DNA from: a phage
Sequence record: PZ151149.1
Direction: 5' to 3' (one strand)
DNA: 64,000 nt
Shown: positions 33,284-50,400 of the stretch, one piece after another
Position numbering within the stretch: position 1 is the first letter of the stretch
Layout: every line of letters begins with the position of its first letter
Program-made: the position numbers and the translations under genes
The notes under the pieces: model-generated
Database searches by the model: none
Seen by the model: the letters and a program-made list of their open reading frames with translations, nothing else
Told to the model about the DNA's origin: nothing

Positions 33284-33291
33284 TATAAATA
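33284..33291 (+). promoter_or_regulatory. T4-type late promoter TATAAATA for gene 36
   Basis: Exact TATAAATA 33 nt upstream of ATG, GAGG SD. Confidence 0.6.
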
Positions 33292-34885: not shown

Positions 34886-37800
34886 ATGGCAGATTTAAGC
34901 AGAATCCAATTTAAACGCACTAGCACTAAAGGTCGTAAACCTGATGCTAGTACGATGTATCCGGGGGAATTAGCAATCAACCTTGCGGATCAATACATGT
35001 TTACTAAAAATGATTCGGGGACTCTCATCAATTTAAGTTGTCCTCCGGTGTATAACCGTGACGTTGTAATGGCGGGTAAGGTTAAAGGAAATGATTATAT
35101 TTTAAGCAAAACCGCTAATTATTTTGAAGACCAAACCGCGCGAGATCTTAATTATTTTGGTGCGTTTCGACCGAATAATGCTGATGGTTGGTCTAACTTG
35201 ATTCTGAACATTCCTCACCCCAGCGGTAAAGCACACGGTCGCGGGTTTGAATTTCAATATGGTTCTAGTTCCTCTCAGGTTAAAACCTATGGCTTTGATA
35301 AAGATGGTGCTAAGCGATTCAGCTTTCGCATGTATCATGAAGGTGATAAACCTACCCCATCGGAATTGAACGTTTACAGCAAACAAGAAGTTGATCGCAT
35401 GTTTGTTAAAAACGTTAAAATGTCAACTCCTAGCAGTGCAACAGGGTATTTCAAAATTGCTACCGCTATGATCCCACAGCAAGGAAAAATGGTATTTATT
35501 CGTATCTATGGTGGTAATGGATACAACGTTAACTCTCCGACTCAAGTTGATTTTGTAGAAATCGTGATTCTTGGTGGGAATGGAAATCCTAAAGGTGTTA
35601 CTGTTGCTGCATATCGAAGAAATTCTTTAAATCAACTTGAAGTGTTTGCTATTAATACATCCGGTGACAACTATGATATCTACGTAAAATATGGTCGGTA
35701 TACCGATAATGTTATTGTAGAATTTGGTAAAACGGTTGGTGTTAATTTAACTGTTCATGATGTTCCAGATTTTTCGGAAGCAAAACCTGCTGGTACTACC
35801 TTTGAAGGTCGTATTATTACCATGTTTAATACTGAAAATAAACGAGGTTCTTTGTATTTCGATCAAAACACGCAAGAGACTTATGATATTATCAGTTTGT
35901 GTGACTATTCAGGTACTGGCAAAAAATATATTCGTAAATTCCGCAGTGGACCAAGCTACGCAATCTGGCATGAAACTGTTCAAGACGACACATATCGTCT
36001 ATCAACTGGTACTACCGATTCTAACGAAGTTCTACGAATCACAGGTCGTACCATGTATACCGGAAAACTGGTAGTGGATGCAGGAAGTAATGCTATTCGT
36101 ATGCTGCGACCTACCGGACAAAGTAACTATCTGGAATATGTGGATAATCGCAACGGTGCTAGCAAGCGTCAAGGATGGATCGGTTTTGGTAGTATTGAAA
36201 ATGATAACTTCCAATGGTATAGCGACGTAGGTAAAAACTCATTACAGTTAGATACTACTGGTCAAATATCATTAACCACAGGTGCAACAAAAATTGTATA
36301 CGCTAATGGTCAATATGTATCGGCTAACTCTGATGCGTATCGTATGATCTACGGTAATTATGGTGCATTCTGGCGTAATGATGGTGCTAGCGTTTATCTT
36401 CTGTCTACTGCTGAAAATGACAAATTTGGTGCTTGGAATACCTACCGACCGTTTATCTATAATTTAGTATCTGGAGACGTTAAATTAGGTGGTACTAACA
36501 CCGCATGTTGTTTGTATCTGGGAATTGATGGTAGTACCCGTATCGAGGATAAATTAGTTTTCAGGGCGGGATCTCGTCAATCAATGGACTACTTAGAATT
36601 TGTTCATTGGGGGGCAAGCAATACAGGTCGAAATAACGTTTTAAGTCTTCGTGACTCAAAAGGATTTTTAGCAGAATTTGAGCGTAAAGGTGATAACACC
36701 ATTCAAAATACATTCTTCGGAAGATTTAAAGTCAATGGTGATTCTAACGCTATTACCATTAATGCTCCTACTGATTCTGATGCTGTTTATGTGAAAGGTA
36801 CTTGTAATGATGTAGATAACTGGTATATCGGTAAAGGTGGTGCTGGTAATGGATTAGTTTTTTGTAGTTATAAGACTAATGCGGCTGTTCATCTCACAGA
36901 TAATGGTGAGGTTTTATTAGCCCCACAAAACACCGCAATTGTTAACATCAATCGCGACCGTATACACATCAACGGTACACAGTGGGTGGCAAATCAGCCA
37001 CATGGCTGGGGTAATCAGTGGCTGTCCGAAGCTCCTATATTCGTTGATTTTGGTACTGGTGTTCCATATGATACCTATATGCCAATCATTAAAGCCCGTA
37101 GCCAAACTGCTGGCGGTTATGCAACTAAGGCCGATTTTGGTATATATCGTCGTGGTGCTGGTGATAATTGGGGTTGGGGTGATGCTGTTATTCGTGTCGG
37201 TTCTGCCGAAAGTGCCGATTCTTCACATCCAAATGCTAGATTCATGTTCCAAGCAAATGGAGATTTTAGAGCACCTGCTGGCCTCCGTGCTGGTGTTAAC
37301 TTGGGTGTTGGTACTGATCCTGCATTGGGTGGACATTCTATTGCTATCGGTGATAATGACACTGGCTTAATGTGGGGTGGTGATGGTCGTATTAACCTGC
37401 TTGCTAACGGACAGCATATTGCGTCATGGGGTGTTTTCCATCAAGAACATCCTGGGCTATGGTCTGTCGGTGCTGGGTTCTGGACAGAAGTCGATAAAGC
37501 GATTATTTCTCACGGTCACTTGATTCAGGCGAATGACAGCTATTCTACATATGTTCGTGACATTTATATCCGTTCGGATATTCGCGTGAAGAAAGACCTA
37601 GTTAAATTTGAAAATGCATCTAAGACACTTTCAAAAATTAACGGTTACAAATATCTTCAAAAGCGCGGGACCAATGAAGACGGTAGCGAACGTTGGGAAG
37701 AAAACGCTGGTTTGATTGCTCAGGAAGTTCAAGCTATTTTGCCGGAATTGGTTGAAGGCGATCCAGATAGCGAAAACCTTCTTCGTTTGAACTATAACGG

Positions 37801-37942
37801 TGTTGTTGGTTTAAATACTGCTGCGATCAACGAACACACCGAAGAAATTGCACTTCTTAAAGAAGAAAATAACCGTCTGAAAGAAGAAAATAAAATTCTT
37901 CATGATCGTCTTGCTGCAATTGAAGCAAAATTATTTGGTTAA
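34886..37942 (+). CDS. 37: long tail fibre distal subunit (gp37-like) with C-terminal intramolecular chaperone domain (1018 aa)
   Basis: N-terminus MADLSRIQFKRTS ... GELAINLADQ; C-terminal about 122 aa with SDIRVKKD motif, GLIAQEVQ and coiled coil typical of S74 self-cleaving chaperone domains. Confidence 0.8.
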   Translation: MADLSRIQFKRTSTKGRKPDASTMYPGELAINLADQYMFTKNDSGTLINLSCPPVYNRDVVMAGKVKGNDYILSKTANYFEDQTARDLNYFGAFRPNNADGWSNLILNIPHPSGKAHGRGFEFQYGSSSSQVKTYGFDKDGAKRFSFRMYHEGDKPTPSELNVYSKQEVDRMFVKNVKMSTPSSATGYFKIATAMIPQQGKMVFIRIYGGNGYNVNSPTQVDFVEIVILGGNGNPKGVTVAAYRRNSLNQLEVFAINTSGDNYDIYVKYGRYTDNVIVEFGKTVGVNLTVHDVPDFSEAKPAGTTFEGRIITMFNTENKRGSLYFDQNTQETYDIISLCDYSGTGKKYIRKFRSGPSYAIWHETVQDDTYRLSTGTTDSNEVLRITGRTMYTGKLVVDAGSNAIRMLRPTGQSNYLEYVDNRNGASKRQGWIGFGSIENDNFQWYSDVGKNSLQLDTTGQISLTTGATKIVYANGQYVSANSDAYRMIYGNYGAFWRNDGASVYLLSTAENDKFGAWNTYRPFIYNLVSGDVKLGGTNTACCLYLGIDGSTRIEDKLVFRAGSRQSMDYLEFVHWGASNTGRNNVLSLRDSKGFLAEFERKGDNTIQNTFFGRFKVNGDSNAITINAPTDSDAVYVKGTCNDVDNWYIGKGGAGNGLVFCSYKTNAAVHLTDNGEVLLAPQNTAIVNINRDRIHINGTQWVANQPHGWGNQWLSEAPIFVDFGTGVPYDTYMPIIKARSQTAGGYATKADFGIYRRGAGDNWGWGDAVIRVGSAESADSSHPNARFMFQANGDFRAPAGLRAGVNLGVGTDPALGGHSIAIGDNDTGLMWGGDGRINLLANGQHIASWGVFHQEHPGLWSVGAGFWTEVDKAIISHGHLIQANDSYSTYVRDIYIRSDIRVKKDLVKFENASKTLSKINGYKYLQKRGTNEDGSERWEENAGLIAQEVQAILPELVEGDPDSENLLRLNYNGVVGLNTAAINEHTEEIALLKEENNRLKEENKILHDRLAAIEAKLFG

Positions 37943-37950
37943 TTTAAATG

Positions 37951-37968
37951 GCGGGGAGAAATCCCCGC
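37951..37968 (+). other. stem-loop between gene 37 and first Gly-rich paralog
   Basis: GCGGGGA-GAAA-TCCCCGC, no U-tract; followed by AAGGA SD. Confidence 0.3.
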
Positions 37969-37980
37969 TAAGGATCTTAA

Positions 37981-38277
37981 ATGGGCTATTGGGTAAGTAA
38001 TGAACAAGGCACTAAAATAGATGCTGTAAAATGGCATGTTTTTGATATTCCTAATGGATATGTCCCCGGTCGTGCTGGTGTTGCCGTTTTGCGGCATACT
38101 GCTAATGATGTTTGGGGTGATATTCATATTTCCGTTGACGGTGTGGTCGCCGCGCGTCGTCGTGGTGGTGGGGATTGGGGATTTACGGTTAATGCGTTTG
38201 TTCCTGCTGGATGTACTGTCACCTTTGGTCATGGTGGTGGCGGTGGTATTGAATACTTTAAATTTATGGAGTTTTAA
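37981..38277 (+). CDS. glycine-rich small protein, paralog 1 (98 aa)
   Basis: MGYWV ... VFDIPNGYVPGRAGV ... RRGGGDWGFTV ... GHGGGGGIEYFKF; first of three tandem paralogs. Confidence 0.5.
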   Translation: MGYWVSNEQGTKIDAVKWHVFDIPNGYVPGRAGVAVLRHTANDVWGDIHISVDGVVAARRRGGGDWGFTVNAFVPAGCTVTFGHGGGGGIEYFKFMEF

Positions 38278-38279
38278 TT

Positions 38280-38585
38280 ATGGCTGGATGGGTTGCGGGA
38301 AGAATGGCTAATGCTATTAGCATTTATGCTAATGGTGGGTGGTTTGGTATCCCTAATGGTTGGGTGGCTGATTCATGCGGTATTGTGTCTGTTCATGCCG
38401 AAGCAGTTGGCGGTGGAGGTGACTTGGACGCCGAATTATATGTAAACGGTACTCTCGAATCAGGTCATCACGCTGGTAATGCCGGAAGTTGGGGAGCTAG
38501 TTCTTTAGTTGGTGTTGGCGCTACTGTCAGTTTTAGCATTGGTAAAGGAAGTTTACATCACTTCCAATTTAGGAGAATGCATTAA
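38280..38585 (+). CDS. glycine-rich small protein, paralog 2 (101 aa)
   Basis: WFGIPNGWVADSCGIV ... AVGGGGDLDAELYVNG; ATG 2 nt after previous stop. Confidence 0.5.
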   Translation: MAGWVAGRMANAISIYANGGWFGIPNGWVADSCGIVSVHAEAVGGGGDLDAELYVNGTLESGHHAGNAGSWGASSLVGVGATVSFSIGKGSLHHFQFRRMH

Positions 38586-38887
38586 TGGGATATTGGGTGT
38601 ATGGCGTTTTAGACAATAAAGCCGGTAAAGCGAATCAGGGATGGTTTGATATTCCTAACGGGTGGACGCCTGACGCTTTCGGTACGGTTTCATTTGGTGC
38701 TAGTTCTGCTGGTGGTGGCGGTGGTGACTCAGAATTGCTTTTGCATGGCTTTTGTGTGTCTGGAAGTCATAAGGGTCATGATTGGGGACAGATCCATTCT
38801 TGTATTGTGCCGCAGGGAGTAACGATCACGGTAACTACAAACAGGGGTATTTCCCATCTTCGTTATAGACGCTTGAGCAACCGTTAA
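38585..38887 (+). CDS. glycine-rich small protein, paralog 3 (100 aa)
   Basis: MGYWVYG ... WFDIPNGWTPDAFGTV ... SAGGGGGDSELLLHG; TAATG overlap with paralog 2. Confidence 0.5.
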   Translation: MGYWVYGVLDNKAGKANQGWFDIPNGWTPDAFGTVSFGASSAGGGGGDSELLLHGFCVSGSHKGHDWGQIHSCIVPQGVTITVTTNRGISHLRYRRLSNR

Positions 38888-38940: not shown

Positions 38941-39180
38941 ATGGTCTATAATATCGTCATGGGTGCTTTGTCTAATTTCGGAATGAAACTATTGTCAAAG
39001 TTAATTAGTGAAAAGATGCTCACTAAAATTTTCTTCTATTGCGCTCGTCGTCTTGCGGCTTATACTAATACGCCAATTGATGATCGTTTTGTGGAAGAAC
39101 TTTATAAGGAGTTTAATAAAGATCAGTCAGAAGATAGTAACGAGCAAGATAAACCTAGTGATAGTCAACTACCTAAATAA
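38941..39180 (+). CDS. hypothetical protein (79 aa)
   Basis: ATG with AAGGAG SD; hydrophobic N-terminus, acidic C-terminus. Confidence 0.4.
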   Translation: MVYNIVMGALSNFGMKLLSKLISEKMLTKIFFYCARRLAAYTNTPIDDRFVEELYKEFNKDQSEDSNEQDKPSDSQLPK

Positions 39181-39213: not shown

Positions 39214-39870
39214 ATGCAAGTTTCTGAAAAAGGGAAAGACTTTGCTATCTCAAATGTCCTGCGCGCTATTTTCACAACTAAAAGCACGGAGTTGCTCGTA
39301 CTTCGTGTTTTTGCTGCCGTCGTGTTGTCTATATTAGCATTTGTCGTTTATAGTAAAAACGAGTTATTTGCGCTTTATAAAGAGACTCGTTATGAGACTT
39401 ATGCTCACGTTCTCCAGGTAGAGAAAGACCGCAATTTTGATAATGCAGCACAGGAGCAGTTACAGATAGTTCATGTGTCGGCTGATGCCGATTTTTCTGC
39501 TGTTTTTAGTTTTCGTCCGAAAAACCTAAACTATTTTGTTGATTTGGTGGCATATGAAGGAAAGCTACCGCATACAATCGATGAAAAAAATTTAGGCGGA
39601 TTCCCTATCAATAAAACGAGTGAAGAATATCGTAGGCATCTTTTAGGTAAATCCTATTTTACCGATAAAGATTTCCAGTATATTCCATCAAGAGAAAAGA
39701 AATTAGAGAGTATCGATATAGGGGTTATGTATTCTTGTCCTATATTCAATCTCGACAATGTCTATTCTGGTAGTATCTCCATTGCATGGAAGAATAAACC
39801 GGATATTGACATTGAGAATTTAGATACTCTTTGCAATCAATCTGCCAGAATCCTCGGAAGGATTAGATAA
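39214..39870 (+). CDS. t: holin T
   Basis: 218 aa (same as T4 T); single N-terminal TMD; long blocks matching recalled T4 T (LQIVHVSADADFSAVFSFRPKNLNYFVDLVAYEGKLP, YSCPIFNLDNVYSGSI, ARILGRIR). Confidence 0.85.
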   Translation: MQVSEKGKDFAISNVLRAIFTTKSTELLVLRVFAAVVLSILAFVVYSKNELFALYKETRYETYAHVLQVEKDRNFDNAAQEQLQIVHVSADADFSAVFSFRPKNLNYFVDLVAYEGKLPHTIDEKNLGGFPINKTSEEYRRHLLGKSYFTDKDFQYIPSREKKLESIDIGVMYSCPIFNLDNVYSGSISIAWKNKPDIDIENLDTLCNQSARILGRIR

Positions 39871-44703: not shown

Positions 44704-46050
44704 TCAACCCTTCTTAAGTTCTTTAAGATCTTTCTTATATTCCTTCATTGCGGTCGTCTTTGTCCAATACTCATATTCACTATGATGTTTATCGGCATCT
44801 TTGACCAGTCGATCATACTCTTCTTGAGTAACGCTATACAATGGCATAGAAACTAGCTTATCGGCGTATGGACGCAGTTTTTCATGTCCATTGATGGATT
44901 GCATTACCTCGGCCTTTTTCTTTCCCTGTAGCTCGATTTCGCCCTTAATTACGCGATCGATAAATTCGGCTTTAGCCATTGCATAATTGTATGCTTCCAG
45001 CGTTTCCGCTTGCATCAATTCAATGCGTTTATCGACATACCCTAATCGGATTTCGACGAATCGACGGATCAGATCGCTCGCTTTCTCGAATACTTCTACT
45101 AAACCACGTTCGTTAACTACTACGATATTCTGGGCTACTAACTGCGTTAGTTTAAAATCCTTCATTATTTGCTCATGTCGAGCGGATTCATCTTCGCTTT
45201 TGAAATAATCGCGTTTCAGTGTTACTTCAAATCTGAATCCGTCCTTAGAGCAACGATCATTATATGAGACAATCAGATCTTTTTCTTCCAGTGCATCCAG
45301 TACCGCTACATATTCTTCACGGTCGAACTTATAAGGAACTTCTGATATTGTCAGTTTAGTCTTGCCGTTTAGTTCATATGTACCCTCAAGAATCACACCA
45401 TCGCGATCATCTCGCGGGATAACTTTACCAGTGAATTTTGGGAATTGAACACTAGGTTCTTTATCCAGTTTTCCGGCAAGTGCTAGCTCTGTGCATTCAA
45501 TAAGGCTTTCCAGTGAATGCGGTAAAATGTCAGTTTTATACCCTGTAGCAATACCACTAATACCATTAGCCAATACCATTGGCACAACCGGCAAGTAGAA
45601 CGCTGGCGGGATGTGTTCCAGATCTTCGTGCTTAGGTGCGCAATTCATATCTTTATAGATTTTAAAGAAGTTTTCATGCACACGAGCAAAGATATAACGT
45701 GCCGCACCTGCTTTCTGGACTAAACGCGATCCGAAGTTACCTTGACCGTCAAGCAGTGGAGTATTATTGCTCCATGTATTCGCCATGAGTGATCCGGCTT
45801 CTACGGCATTAGTTTCCCCGTGGTGATAACCCAACTCAGCGACACCAGATCCAATATCTGCCATCTTACGGAATTTCTTACGGTCGCCTTTACTCTTTTG
45901 CAAAGCACATTCCATAACAAAGCGTTGCACTGGTTTAAGTCCATCCACCAATTGAGGAATCCCGCGTTCCTCGGCAGAATAGATCGCATATTCCTTAGCT
46001 TCATTATGTACAATGCTTTCAAGGCTACGGTAAGTAACTGATTTATTCAT
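44704..46050 (-). CDS. 52: DNA topoisomerase II medium subunit (GyrA-like)
   Basis: About 448 aa (T4 gp52 442 aa); GyrA-type breakage-reunion sequence; ATG at 46050 with GAGGTGA SD (track start is GTG). Confidence 0.85.
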   Translation of the reverse strand: MNKSVTYRSLESIVHNEAKEYAIYSAEERGIPQLVDGLKPVQRFVMECALQKSKGDRKKFRKMADIGSGVAELGYHHGETNAVEAGSLMANTWSNNTPLLDGQGNFGSRLVQKAGAARYIFARVHENFFKIYKDMNCAPKHEDLEHIPPAFYLPVVPMVLANGISGIATGYKTDILPHSLESLIECTELALAGKLDKEPSVQFPKFTGKVIPRDDRDGVILEGTYELNGKTKLTISEVPYKFDREEYVAVLDALEEKDLIVSYNDRCSKDGFRFEVTLKRDYFKSEDESARHEQIMKDFKLTQLVAQNIVVVNERGLVEVFEKASDLIRRFVEIRLGYVDKRIELMQAETLEAYNYAMAKAEFIDRVIKGEIELQGKKKAEVMQSINGHEKLRPYADKLVSMPLYSVTQEEYDRLVKDADKHHSEYEYWTKTTAMKEYKKDLKELKKG

Positions 46051-46057
46051 CTTCACC

Positions 46058-46420
46058 TCATACACGCTTACAAATCACATTCTTTACTTTATCAGATTTA
46101 TCAGCCCAATCCAATAGCCATTTTAACGGAAGGATTGAAACAATAAACGGGGCAGCAATCAAAGCAAACATGATACACCGGATAATCAGGAAAGCGCAAG
46201 TAACAAAGCTAGCGATCGTGATCCCGACAAAACAAAATACCATAGAAAACAGAGTAATGATATAGAAAGGCCAGAATACCCACTCCCGCATCTTAACGCC
46301 TTTGTATTCTCTGAATTGCTTAAAATCTACAAACAACTCTCGGATAGACGCATACAGGACCGAAAAATCATCTTTCATTGCTCTGAATGAGCAATCTTCT
46401 ATTTTAGAATGACCTAGCAT
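46058..46420 (-). CDS. membrane protein (120 aa)
   Basis: Two long hydrophobic segments (WVFWPFYIITLFSMVFCFVGITIASFV, IMFALIAAPFIVSILPL). Confidence 0.5.
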   Translation of the reverse strand: MLGHSKIEDCSFRAMKDDFSVLYASIRELFVDFKQFREYKGVKMREWVFWPFYIITLFSMVFCFVGITIASFVTCAFLIIRCIMFALIAAPFIVSILPLKWLLDWADKSDKVKNVICKRV

Positions 46421-46761: not shown

Positions 46762-47079
46762 TTATTGTTCTACAGTATAACCGTTGTTTTCAAGCCATGC
46801 AATAACAATCTTTTCGCCAATTTCATCGAGCATTTCATCAGCGCCATATTCTTTAATGAAAGTCGATGGATCATTATTGCTTACTACATGCTGAATAACA
46901 ACATGTTCAGGGATTGCATCTAACAGTTCATCATGGTCATACTCGTTAGCAATATCTTCAACGGTAACATTATTAGCCAGATCCACCTCGTCTAAAGTCA
47001 CCGTAACGCGTCGAGTTGGATATGATCCCTGTTCTACTTCAACCTGTGCACTTTCGCAAGTAACCTTCATATCAATCAT
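46762..47079 (-). CDS. hypothetical acidic protein (105 aa)
   Basis: ATG at 47079 with AGAGGA SD (track start is TTG). Confidence 0.45.
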   Translation of the reverse strand: MIDMKVTCESAQVEVEQGSYPTRRVTVTLDEVDLANNVTVEDIANEYDHDELLDAIPEHVVIQHVVSNNDPSTFIKEYGADEMLDEIGEKIVIAWLENNGYTVEQ

Positions 47080-47093
47080 AATCAATTCCTCTG

Positions 47094-48086
47094 TTAGTAA
47101 TGGCTAAAACCTTCGGTTACATCTTCAACCACATAGTAACGATGACAGCGCATTTTAGCATTCGCATAATCTTTCGGGATACTTACAACGTGACGCGGAT
47201 CAACTTTGCATTTAATGATTCGGCCTCGTCCACCGCCATAGTGCGGAATGTAGTGTTTCGCTGCAACGTGGAGGCCATTAGAGCAAGTGCGATCATCATC
47301 TGGGTCCACGTCTTTACGTTTCATTTTAACCGTGCGCCCTGGGCTATTATCAAATGTATGCGTAAAGAAATCTTTATAATCAACATCAACACGTTTCCAT
47401 GCATAGAAACAACCATCTTCCCCGATCTCAATGTCGTTGTGCTCTAAGAAGTCAAACAGACGATCTACCGCCTTACGGCTAGGGTTTTTCTTGCACTTCT
47501 CAAAGAAGTTCAGATAGTGCGTATATGGCTTATTCTCTTTAATCGATTCCACAACTCGGCGAGTCAGATTATTATCAAGAACAATATTATGATAATACAC
47601 AATACCATTTTCGATACGGAAAGCGCCGTGATAATATACTTCAACCGCTTTCTTAATGTCAATCAGCGTAATAGCTTTGATGAAATCATTATGTTTAATC
47701 GCTTCCAGTGCTTCATTAAAGTTAACATGCGACGGATCAGCAGTATAAACAATGTCACCACATGTAATAGTAATAAACTTAGTTGAGGCTATTGCTACGA
47801 TTTTTGAGGAAGTAGTCACGGGCTTTTTTGCGCGTTCACCGCCTTTTCCTTTACTGGTTTTACGGCGTGCTTTACGTTTTTCTAGTGCCTTGCGACCTTC
47901 CGCTACTGCGTCTTTCTGAATCAGTAATACACGGGAGGCAGTGCGACGAGATACACCAAATGCTGCCGCAAGTGCTTCGCGGGTAGTAAACTTACCTTCG
48001 CCCCACTGTTTAGCCAGTTTGATTTGTTTTTCAGAATCCAGGCATTGAACGTTACGGTCAGAGACGGTGATTTTTGCTTTAGTCAT
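47094..48086 (-). CDS. rIIB: rIIB protein
   Basis: Immediately downstream of rIIA; C-terminal blocks RLFDFLEHNDIEIGEDGCFYAWK, FDNSPGRTVKM, GLHVAAKHYIPH, VVSIPKDYANAKMR, VVEDVTEGF match recalled T4 rIIB; N-terminal HTH. Confidence 0.65.
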   Translation of the reverse strand: MTKAKITVSDRNVQCLDSEKQIKLAKQWGEGKFTTREALAAAFGVSRRTASRVLLIQKDAVAEGRKALEKRKARRKTSKGKGGERAKKPVTTSSKIVAIASTKFITITCGDIVYTADPSHVNFNEALEAIKHNDFIKAITLIDIKKAVEVYYHGAFRIENGIVYYHNIVLDNNLTRRVVESIKENKPYTHYLNFFEKCKKNPSRKAVDRLFDFLEHNDIEIGEDGCFYAWKRVDVDYKDFFTHTFDNSPGRTVKMKRKDVDPDDDRTCSNGLHVAAKHYIPHYGGGRGRIIKCKVDPRHVVSIPKDYANAKMRCHRYYVVEDVTEGFSHY

Positions 48087-48148
48087 AGTATTCATTCCTC
48101 TATTAGTTGGGCGACTATCGCCGCCCGATTCACATCATTATACCAGAA

Positions 48149-48280
48149 TTATTTTGCTTCTACAACCTTGCGGATTGTGCGGTCTGATACATTATAGATT
48201 CGTGCCAGTTCGCCTTTAGTCAAGCCGCGAGCGTATTGTTTACGGATGGTTTCTTTCTGGATAGCGGTCAGTTTAGTCAT
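48149..48280 (-). CDS. 43-aa helix-turn-helix mini-protein between rIIA and rIIB
   Basis: Below track cutoff; MTKLTAIQKETIRKQYARGLTKGELARIYNVSDRTIRKVVEAK; AGAGGTGA SD; resembles rIIB N-terminal HTH. Confidence 0.4.
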   Translation of the reverse strand: MTKLTAIQKETIRKQYARGLTKGELARIYNVSDRTIRKVVEAK

Positions 48281-48291
48281 AATATCACCTC

Positions 48292-50400
48292 TTAAAATTT
48301 AACATTCTTAACCAGTTTCATAAAGTCTTGTGCGCGTTTGTCGTTATGCAGAATACGATACCAGTTATCTACAATATCATACAGTAACGGGCTATTCTCT
48401 TTAAACTTCGCACAAACTGCTTTAATTCGTTCGTTTGCTGCCGTGAATTTTTCATCACAGATCTTTTTAGTTTCTTCGTCCATAATCCAACGAGTACGAA
48501 GGAGTAACTTGGAAACCTCTTTATTATAATGACGACCGTACAGTCTGTCAATAAATTCTGGAACACAGCGTTCTAGTTCATCGTCATGAAACAACATAGT
48601 GATCACACCCAGATATTCGCCATACCCCAGATGATTGGTCTTAACCTTCTTAGCCAGACCAGCCAGCTTACCGCGAACAAATTCTAGCGCACATTCCAAT
48701 TGTTCGTCAACGAGATATTTTTGTGTCTCGTTACGGGTAATAATATACTTTGTTACCCCGAAGTAGTCAAGCGCCGTGTGTAATGTATTTTCACTATGGA
48801 TCGATTTACGACTACGGCTTTCGAATGCATCACCTACGCGGAACATGTGCAAGCCTGATAACTCGCGAATCTCTGCCGCTTTCATGTGATGGCTGGTTTT
48901 ATGCCAACTGTCACCAATCTTTTCCATGATATACACGTTAGGCAGCTTAGGAGTCGCTTCACGTTGTGTACGCTCGGTCTTCTCCGGTTTAACTGCTTTA
49001 GCACGCAGATCATCGGCCTCAGACACTTTAATCACGGTCATTTCAGAATCATCATAATACTGTTTGATGTACTCGAAAGTCTCCATATGTTTTTCGTTGC
49101 GCTGACGGAACACAAGTACCTTTTTATTGATTCCGTATTCCTGGACCATGCCGTTAAGAGTCAGTGCACGCAGTTTCGGTTTATCGGTATCATCAATTAC
49201 ACACAGAATATCTTCTTTATGCATCCATACAAAATGCGTAATGTTGTATTGACTGCTAACGAAAGCAGGGCGCAATTTACTGATTGTGTGACGAGTACGA
49301 CACAGAGTATACACCTGACCTTCTACGTCATTAGGCGAATCTTTACCCGCATTCACAAACTTATTATAGATTGCTACCGGATCATCCCATTGTCCGATCT
49401 TACCCATCTTGCTAATAATATTGCGTTGAGTCGATGAATACTCGCTCATAAATTGCGCAAGTTTACGCTCTGTTTTAATGTTGGCGATCTTTTCTTTAAC
49501 CTTTTCCAACATCATTTCATTGATTTCTGCAATGCGTTTTTCGATGTTCGCTTTAGTCTCAATTGACAAGTGAACTTCTTCACGCGATGGCATCAGGTCC
49601 AGATCACCCAACTCAAAATTAATGTAAATGGTCTGGCGCTGGCGGTTTACAGCTTCTAACCATGTTCCGCGAACATATTCATACGGGATCGGATACTGGA
49701 TCTTACCCATGATTGCATATACTACATAGGAATCGTTATCACGCCCATTACAAACATAATAATTATCAAAGCTAGGGAAATAATTAATTTCGATTGCATT
49801 GATATTAGGTTTGTGTTCCCCAAAATGACGCAGTACAAATTGCGCTTCTCGATGCCATGTCTGAATGTCTTTTTCTTTCACCGGAATAGTGATTTTCAGA
49901 CCATTGTCTTCATAGGTCGGTTCGTCGAAAATCTGCACCATTTTCGGCATAGAGTTTTGCACGAATGCAGTAAATCCATAAGCGCGACCATTGTAATAGT
50001 TTACGATTGTAAAGGTGTCGGTATAGCTATAAGCAGACTTCGCACCTAAACCAAAAGATCCGATATAGTCATTAGTCTGGTCTTTTGTTGATTCAAAGTA
50101 AACCGTAAACAGTTGTTCTAATTCTTTCTTAGACGGAATACCCGTACCATAATCACGCACAGAAAAATACGGTTCGATTGCAGTCGGTAAATGAATATCA
50201 AACGGACGGTCTAAGGTTCCGGCTTCTTTGTGAGTGTCGGTAGCATTGCACGAATACTCACGGACGCAAGCACGCTCACAATATTGATAGGTATTCTTAG
50301 AAAGCACCATAAAAGCCTTGCTACTTGCTTTCAGTGAAAAATCAACCGCACCGCTCAGATCACTACCAAATACTTCTTCATTATCGATATGCATTTTCAT
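48292..50400 (-). CDS. rIIA: rIIA protein
   Basis: 702 aa (T4 rIIA about 725 aa); GHKL/Bergerat ATPase-like motifs (DYGTGIP ... GSFGLGAKSAY); followed by rIIB. Confidence 0.8.
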   Translation of the reverse strand: MKMHIDNEEVFGSDLSGAVDFSLKASSKAFMVLSKNTYQYCERACVREYSCNATDTHKEAGTLDRPFDIHLPTAIEPYFSVRDYGTGIPSKKELEQLFTVYFESTKDQTNDYIGSFGLGAKSAYSYTDTFTIVNYYNGRAYGFTAFVQNSMPKMVQIFDEPTYEDNGLKITIPVKEKDIQTWHREAQFVLRHFGEHKPNINAIEINYFPSFDNYYVCNGRDNDSYVVYAIMGKIQYPIPYEYVRGTWLEAVNRQRQTIYINFELGDLDLMPSREEVHLSIETKANIEKRIAEINEMMLEKVKEKIANIKTERKLAQFMSEYSSTQRNIISKMGKIGQWDDPVAIYNKFVNAGKDSPNDVEGQVYTLCRTRHTISKLRPAFVSSQYNITHFVWMHKEDILCVIDDTDKPKLRALTLNGMVQEYGINKKVLVFRQRNEKHMETFEYIKQYYDDSEMTVIKVSEADDLRAKAVKPEKTERTQREATPKLPNVYIMEKIGDSWHKTSHHMKAAEIRELSGLHMFRVGDAFESRSRKSIHSENTLHTALDYFGVTKYIITRNETQKYLVDEQLECALEFVRGKLAGLAKKVKTNHLGYGEYLGVITMLFHDDELERCVPEFIDRLYGRHYNKEVSKLLLRTRWIMDEETKKICDEKFTAANERIKAVCAKFKENSPLLYDIVDNWYRILHNDKRAQDFMKLVKNVKF

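Follow-up and report, generated by a model that had tools for sequence, protein, structure and literature searches.

T-even phages carry gp38 directly behind the distal tail fibre gene, and the question raised by the present locus is what three consecutive small ORFs are doing in that place. The window, i.e. the whole stretch of 64,000 nucleotides that was analysed (PZ151149.1), comes from a Krischvirus (RB49-like, T4-type coliphage) and is 92-98% identical to phage vB_EcoM_G2248 (G2248) across most of its length. An initial annotation, made from the sequence alone, regarded the three ORFs as a triplicated, diversifying receptor-binding or fibre-tip cassette. As described below, the three proteins are probably a new kind of fibre-tip host-recognition module, although our view of their evolution and of their relation to gp38 differs from the original proposal.

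The three ORFs and their surroundings

The features needed for the argument are listed here in the order of their position in the window.

33284..33291, + strand: T4-type late-promoter consensus TATAAATA, 5' of gp36; the window has four matches, a number within chance, and position is the sole argument for this one
34886..37942, + strand: gp37-like distal long-tail-fibre subunit, 1018 aa, with Gp34_trimer and gp37_trimer matches and a C-terminal Peptidase_S74 domain
37949..37970, + strand: GC-rich hairpin GGCGGGGA-GAAA-UCCCCGCU between the gp37 stop and the ribosome-binding site of P1, without a U-tract
37981..38277, + strand: P1-type subunit, 98 aa; signature VFDIPNGY, C-terminus ending FKFMEF; AlphaFold pLDDT 82.6, predicted beta-sandwich
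38280..38585, + strand: P2-type subunit, 101 aa; signature SIYANGGWF, LVGxGA, FRRMH
38585..38887, + strand: P3-type subunit, 100 aa; signature AGKxNQGWFDIPNGW, GDSEL, VSGSH, HSC, RYRR; AlphaFold pLDDT 80.2
38941..39180, + strand: Dc5-like ORF, 79 aa, phrog_402; right edge of the cassette
39214..39870, + strand: holin T (t), 218 aa; context only

The lengths and coordinates of the three ORFs (P1, P2 and P3, together the trio) are exactly those initially given. Each is read in a different frame; a gap of 2 nt follows P1, and the stop of P2 shares the sequence TAATG with the start of P3. Shine-Dalgarno-like sequences (AAGGA, GGAG and AGGAG) are found 8-10 nt 5' of the trio genes. The abutting or overlapping stops and starts, together with a separate ribosome-binding site for every gene, fit equimolar synthesis of the three proteins. 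The late transcript running through gp36, gp37 and the trio likely starts at the 33284 consensus. In RB49 the Dc5-like ORF comes straight after gp37.

That the three proteins are paralogues was borne out by BLASTP (E=1e-6 for P1/P2, 4e-16 for P2/P3); among themselves they share 27-40% identity. All three are under purifying selection (pairwise dN/dS 0.05-0.42, even with synonymous sites saturated), hence they are genuine coding genes. The motifs that had been described as common to the trio are so only in part. The FDIPNG(W/Y) block and the aromatic/basic C-termini are shared, but the central GGGG(G)D run occurs in P2 and P3 only; P1 has NDVWGD at this position and its glycine runs are elsewhere. 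What is conserved in the family as a whole is M-x-x-W at the N-terminus, the FDIPNG(W/Y) block, a single Asp, a number of Gly and, at the C-terminus, a strand of aromatic/basic character. The loops with glycine runs vary from lineage to lineage and some members lack them, and of this region the family keeps the Asp that follows the run.

The hairpin at the gp37/P1 junction (-17.1 kcal/mol, z=-2.7) is kept in all trio loci of E. coli and Salmonella, with the loop flipped in UPWr_E1; in the T7-like contig L015 the stem sequence differs yet still pairs. In the G2248 record it is annotated as a terminator. As it has no U-tract, it may set the fibre:trio ratio, either by attenuation or through the stability of the RNA.

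Over the trio (38100-38700) the GC content is 0.46-0.47, compared with about 0.37-0.40 in the flanks, and the G-skew, which reaches +0.43, is caused by the glycine codons. The part encoding the fibre tip (36900-37500) is GC-rich like the trio, and the G-skew rises there, too. The raised GC content over the trio and the fibre tip is consistent with import from enterobacterial prophages.

Predicted fold and the conserved triad

In the AlphaFold2 models of P3 and P1 a low-confidence N-terminus of about 18 residues is followed by a compact beta-sandwich. The comparison of predicted structures that had been suggested in the initial annotation was done with Foldseek: the best ranks in the PDB were taken by C1q-type proteins (cerebellin, C1QL and C1q), and in BFVD the matches were phage tail-fibre C-terminal domains and phage proteins with C1q/collagen repeats. 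It must be noted that the similarity is moderate, and other jelly-rolls such as capsid proteins, carbohydrate-binding modules and lectins score as well. Jelly-roll is a safe description of the predicted fold, and C1q/TNF-like is our best guess.

In Pfam, including the C1q/TNF families, the trio had no match at E<=1. A sequence search of the PDB returned nothing significant, the best hits being designed 'Pizza' proteins (E about 5e-3), and the one weak PHROG match (phrog_18834, E=2e-3) has no assigned function. Known chaperone families (Tfa, Caudo_TAP, T4 gp38 chaperone) were not matched in Pfam, PHROG or NCBIfam, NCBIfam as a whole gave no match, and the PADLOC models of defence and counter-defence systems were not matched at E<=1. 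Reading of the P1, P2 and P3 sequences showed neither signal peptides nor transmembrane segments.

The family is rare. Among deposited phage genomes tblastn detected it only in G2248, UPWr_E1 and G37-3, with a remnant in KFS-EC. About 40 family clusters were found among 5.8 billion proteins. When 1.84 billion representatives were searched exhaustively with an HMM, about 15 clusters proved genuine, all consisting of free-standing proteins of about 100 aa. Matches to giant proteins (ankyrin, Ig-repeat etc.) were rejected as spurious, because they were sums of stretches scoring <=18 bits each, mostly <11. All orthologues of the trio are annotated as 'hypothetical protein', and we found no mention of these ORFs in the literature on Krischvirus fibres, phage FJ63A, UPWr_E1 and the genomes of Korf et al. 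The family appears to be undescribed, as had been suspected.

We examined 20 loci from T4-like myoviruses, siphovirus-type prophages of E. coli and Salmonella, and T7-like podoviruses. The set comprised four Krischviruses, nine chromosomal E. coli/Salmonella prophage loci belonging to one siphovirus-type family, the T7-like contigs L015/L016 and L023/L024, and other metagenome contigs (L017-L019, L025/L026). Every intact locus has a single P1-, P2- and P3-type gene in fixed order, and the stop of one gene usually overlaps the start of the next. Wherever the contig shows the gene upstream of the trio, it is a fibre gene ending in Peptidase_S74 (recorded for L006-L015 and L023). In the 13 loci that were scanned, the deletion chimera of KFS-EC excepted, the content was one P1, one P2 and one P3 in the order P1-P2-P3, placed immediately behind an S74-ending fibre gene. 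The same triad was seen again in the metagenome contigs L015/L016, L017-L019 and L023/L024, the fibres of L015 and L023 having a T7-type N-terminus besides S74, and on the short contigs L025/L026 genes of the P1 and P2 types are accompanied by a third ORF that is cut short. The proteins of G2248, UPWr_E1, G37-3 and the prophages are true P1, P2 and P3 orthologues in the same arrangement (72-99% identity in E. coli phages and prophages, 42-66% in Salmonella); the P2 orthologues of prophages have N-terminal extensions.

In a neighbour-joining tree the sequences form three clades according to gene position, and every lineage is represented in each clade. Together with the dN/dS values this topology means that the triplication is older than all known carriers and that each copy has been retained. 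The paralogy described initially is real, but a triplicated, diversifying cassette is not supported: the three genes are ancient orthologous types, present once each, in fixed order and under purifying selection. Judged from the sequences, the three-gene pattern is that expected of non-redundant subunits and not of a diversifying cassette.

In KFS-EC the trio has collapsed into a single chimeric ORF (L002 4749-5180), in which P1 to about residue 92 is joined to mid-P3. The deletion occurred between GGTGGTG runs of glycine codons, with an extra G shifting the frame, which indicates that such repeats act as recombination sites between the paralogues. The invariant 1:1:1 gene content and gene order, and the loss of the set as a whole, argue indirectly for a heterotrimer, as does the predicted fold: C1q/TNF domains form obligate trimers at the ends of fibrous stalks, and in C1q the trimer is made of three different paralogous chains, whose genes lie in tandem.

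These observations can also be used to judge the possibility that P1, P2 and P3 are alternative, independent tip adhesins, each a homo-oligomer, which compete for the fibre tip and provide three specificities per virion population; of the readings considered, this one comes near to the initial idea. C1q/TNF domains are often homotrimers, the M-x-x-W and FDIPNG elements common to all three proteins could serve for docking, and each paralogue and lineage has variable loops of its own, some of them rich in glycine. Redundant genes, however, should come and go, and no locus was found with one, two or four copies or with a duplicated type. Furthermore, the gene order is the same even in lineages so distant that synonymous sites are saturated, gene-wide diversifying selection was not seen, and the sole natural loss takes the whole set. 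We consider independent adhesins quite unlikely.

The genomic position bears on a third possibility, namely that the trio has no role at the fibre tip and is an accessory cassette (superinfection exclusion, anti-defence or lysis) hitch-hiking with the mobile 3' end of the fibre gene. The gp37-t interval is a hot spot of variation, and in Krischviruses and T7-like phages the holin gene follows closely behind the trio. In the prophages, however, the trio belongs to the structural operon, where its neighbours are the fibre gene and the tail-tube gene and the lysis genes are distant, and in L017 it sits between two fibre genes. The place in the prophage structural operon and the adjacency to S74 fibres in three virion architectures tie the trio to the fibre, not to lysis. 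The lack of signal peptides, transmembrane segments and PADLOC matches also speaks against an accessory cassette, which in addition would leave the strict complementarity with gp38 (see below) unexplained. We find this explanation very improbable, and have little doubt that P1, P2 and P3 are real, fibre-linked genes.

The trio, gp38 and the distal fibre

The upstream fibre does have its own self-cleaving chaperone, as initially claimed: Peptidase_S74 was detected by Pfam at aa 897-956 of the 1018-aa gp37-like protein (nt about 37574-37753, E=1.2e-11). From what is known of the S74 family, autocleavage presumably takes place between ...DIYIRS and DIRVKK. The fibre is a mosaic. Compared with L003, L005 and L020-L022, residues 1-620 are RB49-like (62% identity) and residues 481-797 are similar to fibres of the gp38 type (G5211, ETEC4085). 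An additional segment of about 90 residues (about 800-890) on the N-terminal side of the S74 cleavage site is found only in the window, G2248, UPWr_E1 and prophage L009, and the final 15 or so residues (LAAIEAKLFG) are common to two otherwise different types of chaperone domain.

From the presence of this chaperone it had been concluded that a classical gp38 chaperone is not needed. This reasoning does not hold, because the S74-bearing fibres of phage G5211 and prophage ETEC4085 have a genuine gp38 adhesin encoded behind them, and phages of the RB49 type possess one elsewhere in the genome. Among Krischviruses and members of the prophage family alike, the position behind the S74 fibre is either empty (RB49, prophage DEC5A), or occupied by a true gp38 (G5211, kvi, phiS, KMB43, prophage ETEC4085; Pfam GP38 with or without Gp38_N, E=1e-65 to 4e-72), or occupied by the trio. 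According to a 2026 preprint, some Krischviruses have gp38 about 55 kb away from gp37. We found such a distant, T2-type gp38 (258 aa, with glycine-rich motifs) near rI in JSE, RB49, Phi1, KFS-EC and many others; three examples, about 55 kb from gp37, are located as follows.

JSE: 47101-47877 (L027 2423-3199)
RB49: 45370-46143
KFS-EC: 153144-153917

The distant gene is often annotated as 'assembly catalyst' or 'hypothetical'. About 14 Krischvirus genomes have a gap of ~870 bp in place of the distant gp38, and all of these that were examined possess either a gp37-adjacent gp38 or the trio. In the complete genome of G2248 no gp38 was detected by tblastn at E<=1 (positive controls worked). As the distant locus lies outside the window, the absence of gp38 from the window phage is deduced from G2248, its closest relative. 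G2248 has a 714-aa hypothetical ORF inserted beside rI.-1 (46893-49037; L028 8894-11038), which is absent at the JSE site.

The trio and gp38 are thus mutually exclusive alternatives in the Krischviruses and in the prophage family, with the whole-genome scan covering G2248 alone. This exclusivity in two lineages is the main argument for the trio doing the job of gp38, and it agrees with the initial placement of the trio as a fibre-linked cassette in the gp38 slot. KFS-EC, with its collapsed trio, has retained the distant gp38. An earlier argument for the dispensability of the trio, built on RB49 and KFS-EC, was dropped, since the distant gp38 is present in both. Prophage DEC5A has neither the trio nor an adjacent gp38 next to its fibre, thus such a fibre may work alone, which counts against the replacement model.

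A resemblance of the trio to the glycine-rich motifs of gp38 had been suggested, and we rejected the idea that the trio is a gp38 homologue: there was no Pfam GP38/Gp38_N match, and hhalign of the trio profile against G5211 gp38 gave a probability of 0.1% (GP38/Gp38_N positive controls 1e-65 to 4e-72).

T4 gp38, which occupies the same slot behind gp37, is a fibre chaperone, thus the equivalence of position fits adhesin and chaperone alike. The trio may accordingly be a fibre-assembly factor only, with the role of T4 gp38 or Tfa, which binds the distal fibre transiently while it folds, trimerises or releases its chaperone domain and stays outside the virion; the receptor would then be bound by the fibre tip itself. 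Like the genes of tail-fibre chaperones, the trio stands directly behind the fibre gene in every case. The pre-cleavage motif GNGxFNDVYIRS is seen in gp38-partnered and trio-partnered fibres alike, which suggests docking on a generic fibre end, and a chaperone would fit equally. We looked for co-variation of the trio sequence with the type of fibre tip or intramolecular chaperone (IMC) and found none, near-identical trios being placed behind two different tip/IMC types. Between the window and G2248 the trio is 89-97% conserved, and the adjacent fibre tip about 52%. Conservation exceeding that of the adjacent tip and the lack of co-variation are unusual for a host-range determinant and count against this role, and they fit a factor recognising the generic end ...NDVYIRS. 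There is also a structural precedent, the Pam3 chaperone gp25, whose beta-sandwich domain embraces the fibre tip (PMC9608196).

Four observations stand against an assembly factor. The fibres in question already have the S74 intramolecular chaperone; the gp38 alternating with the trio in the Krischvirus lineage is the T2-type adhesin with glycine-rich motifs and not the T4-type chaperone; fibres with closely related tips have gp38 as partner or no neighbour of either kind (RB49, DEC5A); and C1q/TNF-like jelly-rolls are typically terminal knobs, not chaperones. On balance we think that a purely assembly-related function is unlikely. A point against the tip-module model is that the trio domain was not found fused to a fibre C-terminus, either in the exhaustive profile search or in a second, dedicated one.

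The loci also reveal exchange between phages of different life styles. In prophage ETEC4085 a Krischvirus segment containing the fibre tip, gp38, the intergenic sequence and the start of Dc5 replaced P1, P2 and the 5' half of P3, leaving a scar (L022 6925-7200, protein P0028) in which the first Dc5 codons (MVYNI...) are fused to the 3' half of P3. Conversely, G37-3 has prophage-type intergenic sequence to the right of the trio. Together these indicate that lytic T4-like phages and temperate prophages have been donors as well as recipients, and the trio locus documents a recent two-way traffic of fibre-tip modules across the divide of strictly lytic and temperate life styles.

The fibre module of the prophage family is placed between the head and tail genes (L006-L014, L021, L022). 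It is preceded by a protein of 276-277 aa (L008 3541-4374 and homologues in L006-L014, L021 and L022), whose N-terminus resembles the major tail (tube) protein phrog_158 and whose C-terminus resembles gp36 (...IDFGEF). This protein may be an adaptor anchoring a T4-like jointed fibre to a siphovirus tail.

Proposed mechanism and comparison with known systems

We give about an even chance to the reading that the trio is a non-homologous replacement of gp38 at the fibre tip, most probably in the form of a 1:1:1 heterotrimer. According to this model P1, P2 and P3 would be paralogues that parted long ago within a family of small jelly-roll (C1q/TNF-like) proteins, and they would be expressed late along with the fibre. 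The fibre trimer would fold with the help of the S74 domain, which, going by family knowledge, then cuts itself off between ...YIRS and D. The three proteins, produced in equal amounts from the coupled ORFs, would assemble into a C1q-like heterotrimeric knob of presumed 1:1:1 stoichiometry. The knob would attach to the long-tail-fibre trimer at its exposed distal end, becoming part of the virion, and it would provide or shape the receptor-binding tip, as gp38 does in sister phages. The module would travel with distal fibre segments among lytic Krischviruses, temperate enterobacterial siphophages and T7-like phages.

Taken in full, the proposal is that of an undescribed receptor-binding apparatus: a free-standing, heterotrimeric C1q-like cap made of three dedicated paralogues, which is snapped onto a homotrimeric fibre after S74 has been shed, is interchangeable with gp38, and is shared horizontally among myo-, sipho- and podoviruses, including the two-way exchange between lytic and temperate phages. 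We put forward this combined claim tentatively, as one a little short of an even chance.

The host range of T-even-type phages is now predicted and engineered mainly through gp37 and gp38. Some Krischviruses, E. coli and Salmonella prophages and T7-like phages have the unannotated trio, not gp38, in the slot behind the fibre, and receptor-prediction models and fibre-swapping designs would miss the likely specificity determinant of these phages. If the heterotrimer is true, a symmetric fibre carries an asymmetric tip with three distinct faces, and S74-type fibres expose a generic docking end open to unrelated adhesins.

It is informative to compare the trio with systems that resemble it in one respect or another. 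Its closest functional analogue is the T2/T6/S16-type gp38 adhesin (PF05268 and Gp38_N, PF21721). Both occupy the slot after gp37, both have S74-bearing partner fibres, and both contain glycine-rich stretches. They have no sequence or profile similarity, and they differ in construction: gp38 is one monomer of 245-260 aa, has the fold of a polyglycine-II sandwich and conserves its glycine-rich motifs, whereas the trio consists of three proteins of about 100 aa with a predicted jelly-roll and with glycine runs that are not conserved.

T4 gp38 and the Tfa/gpU-type assembly proteins are similarly small and encoded directly 3' of the fibre gene that they serve, and some Tfa proteins remain on the tip and add to binding. 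They are not homologous to the trio and are single proteins, in contrast to three paralogous subunits; moreover, the partner fibres of the trio already possess an intramolecular chaperone. The best structural matches of the trio are the C1q/TNF heads (C1q A/B/C, cerebellins, collagen VIII/X NC1, lymphotoxin, BclA), and the three tandem paralogous genes of C1q are mirrored by the conserved P1-P2-P3 triad.

The closest conceptual precedent comes from the tail of the virophage DSLV2, where three consecutive related genes, present as a conserved set, were reported to encode a heterotrimeric receptor-binding fibre (PMC12724248). Like the model proposed here, this is a 'three genes, one trimer' fibre part. 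The DSLV2 proteins are gp37-like fibre shafts unrelated in sequence to the trio, whose members are predicted jelly-rolls of 100 aa that would be added to a homotrimeric fibre. Seen against these systems, the trio appears to be new in two respects, as a protein family and as a proposed three-subunit architecture among accessory fibre-tip proteins.
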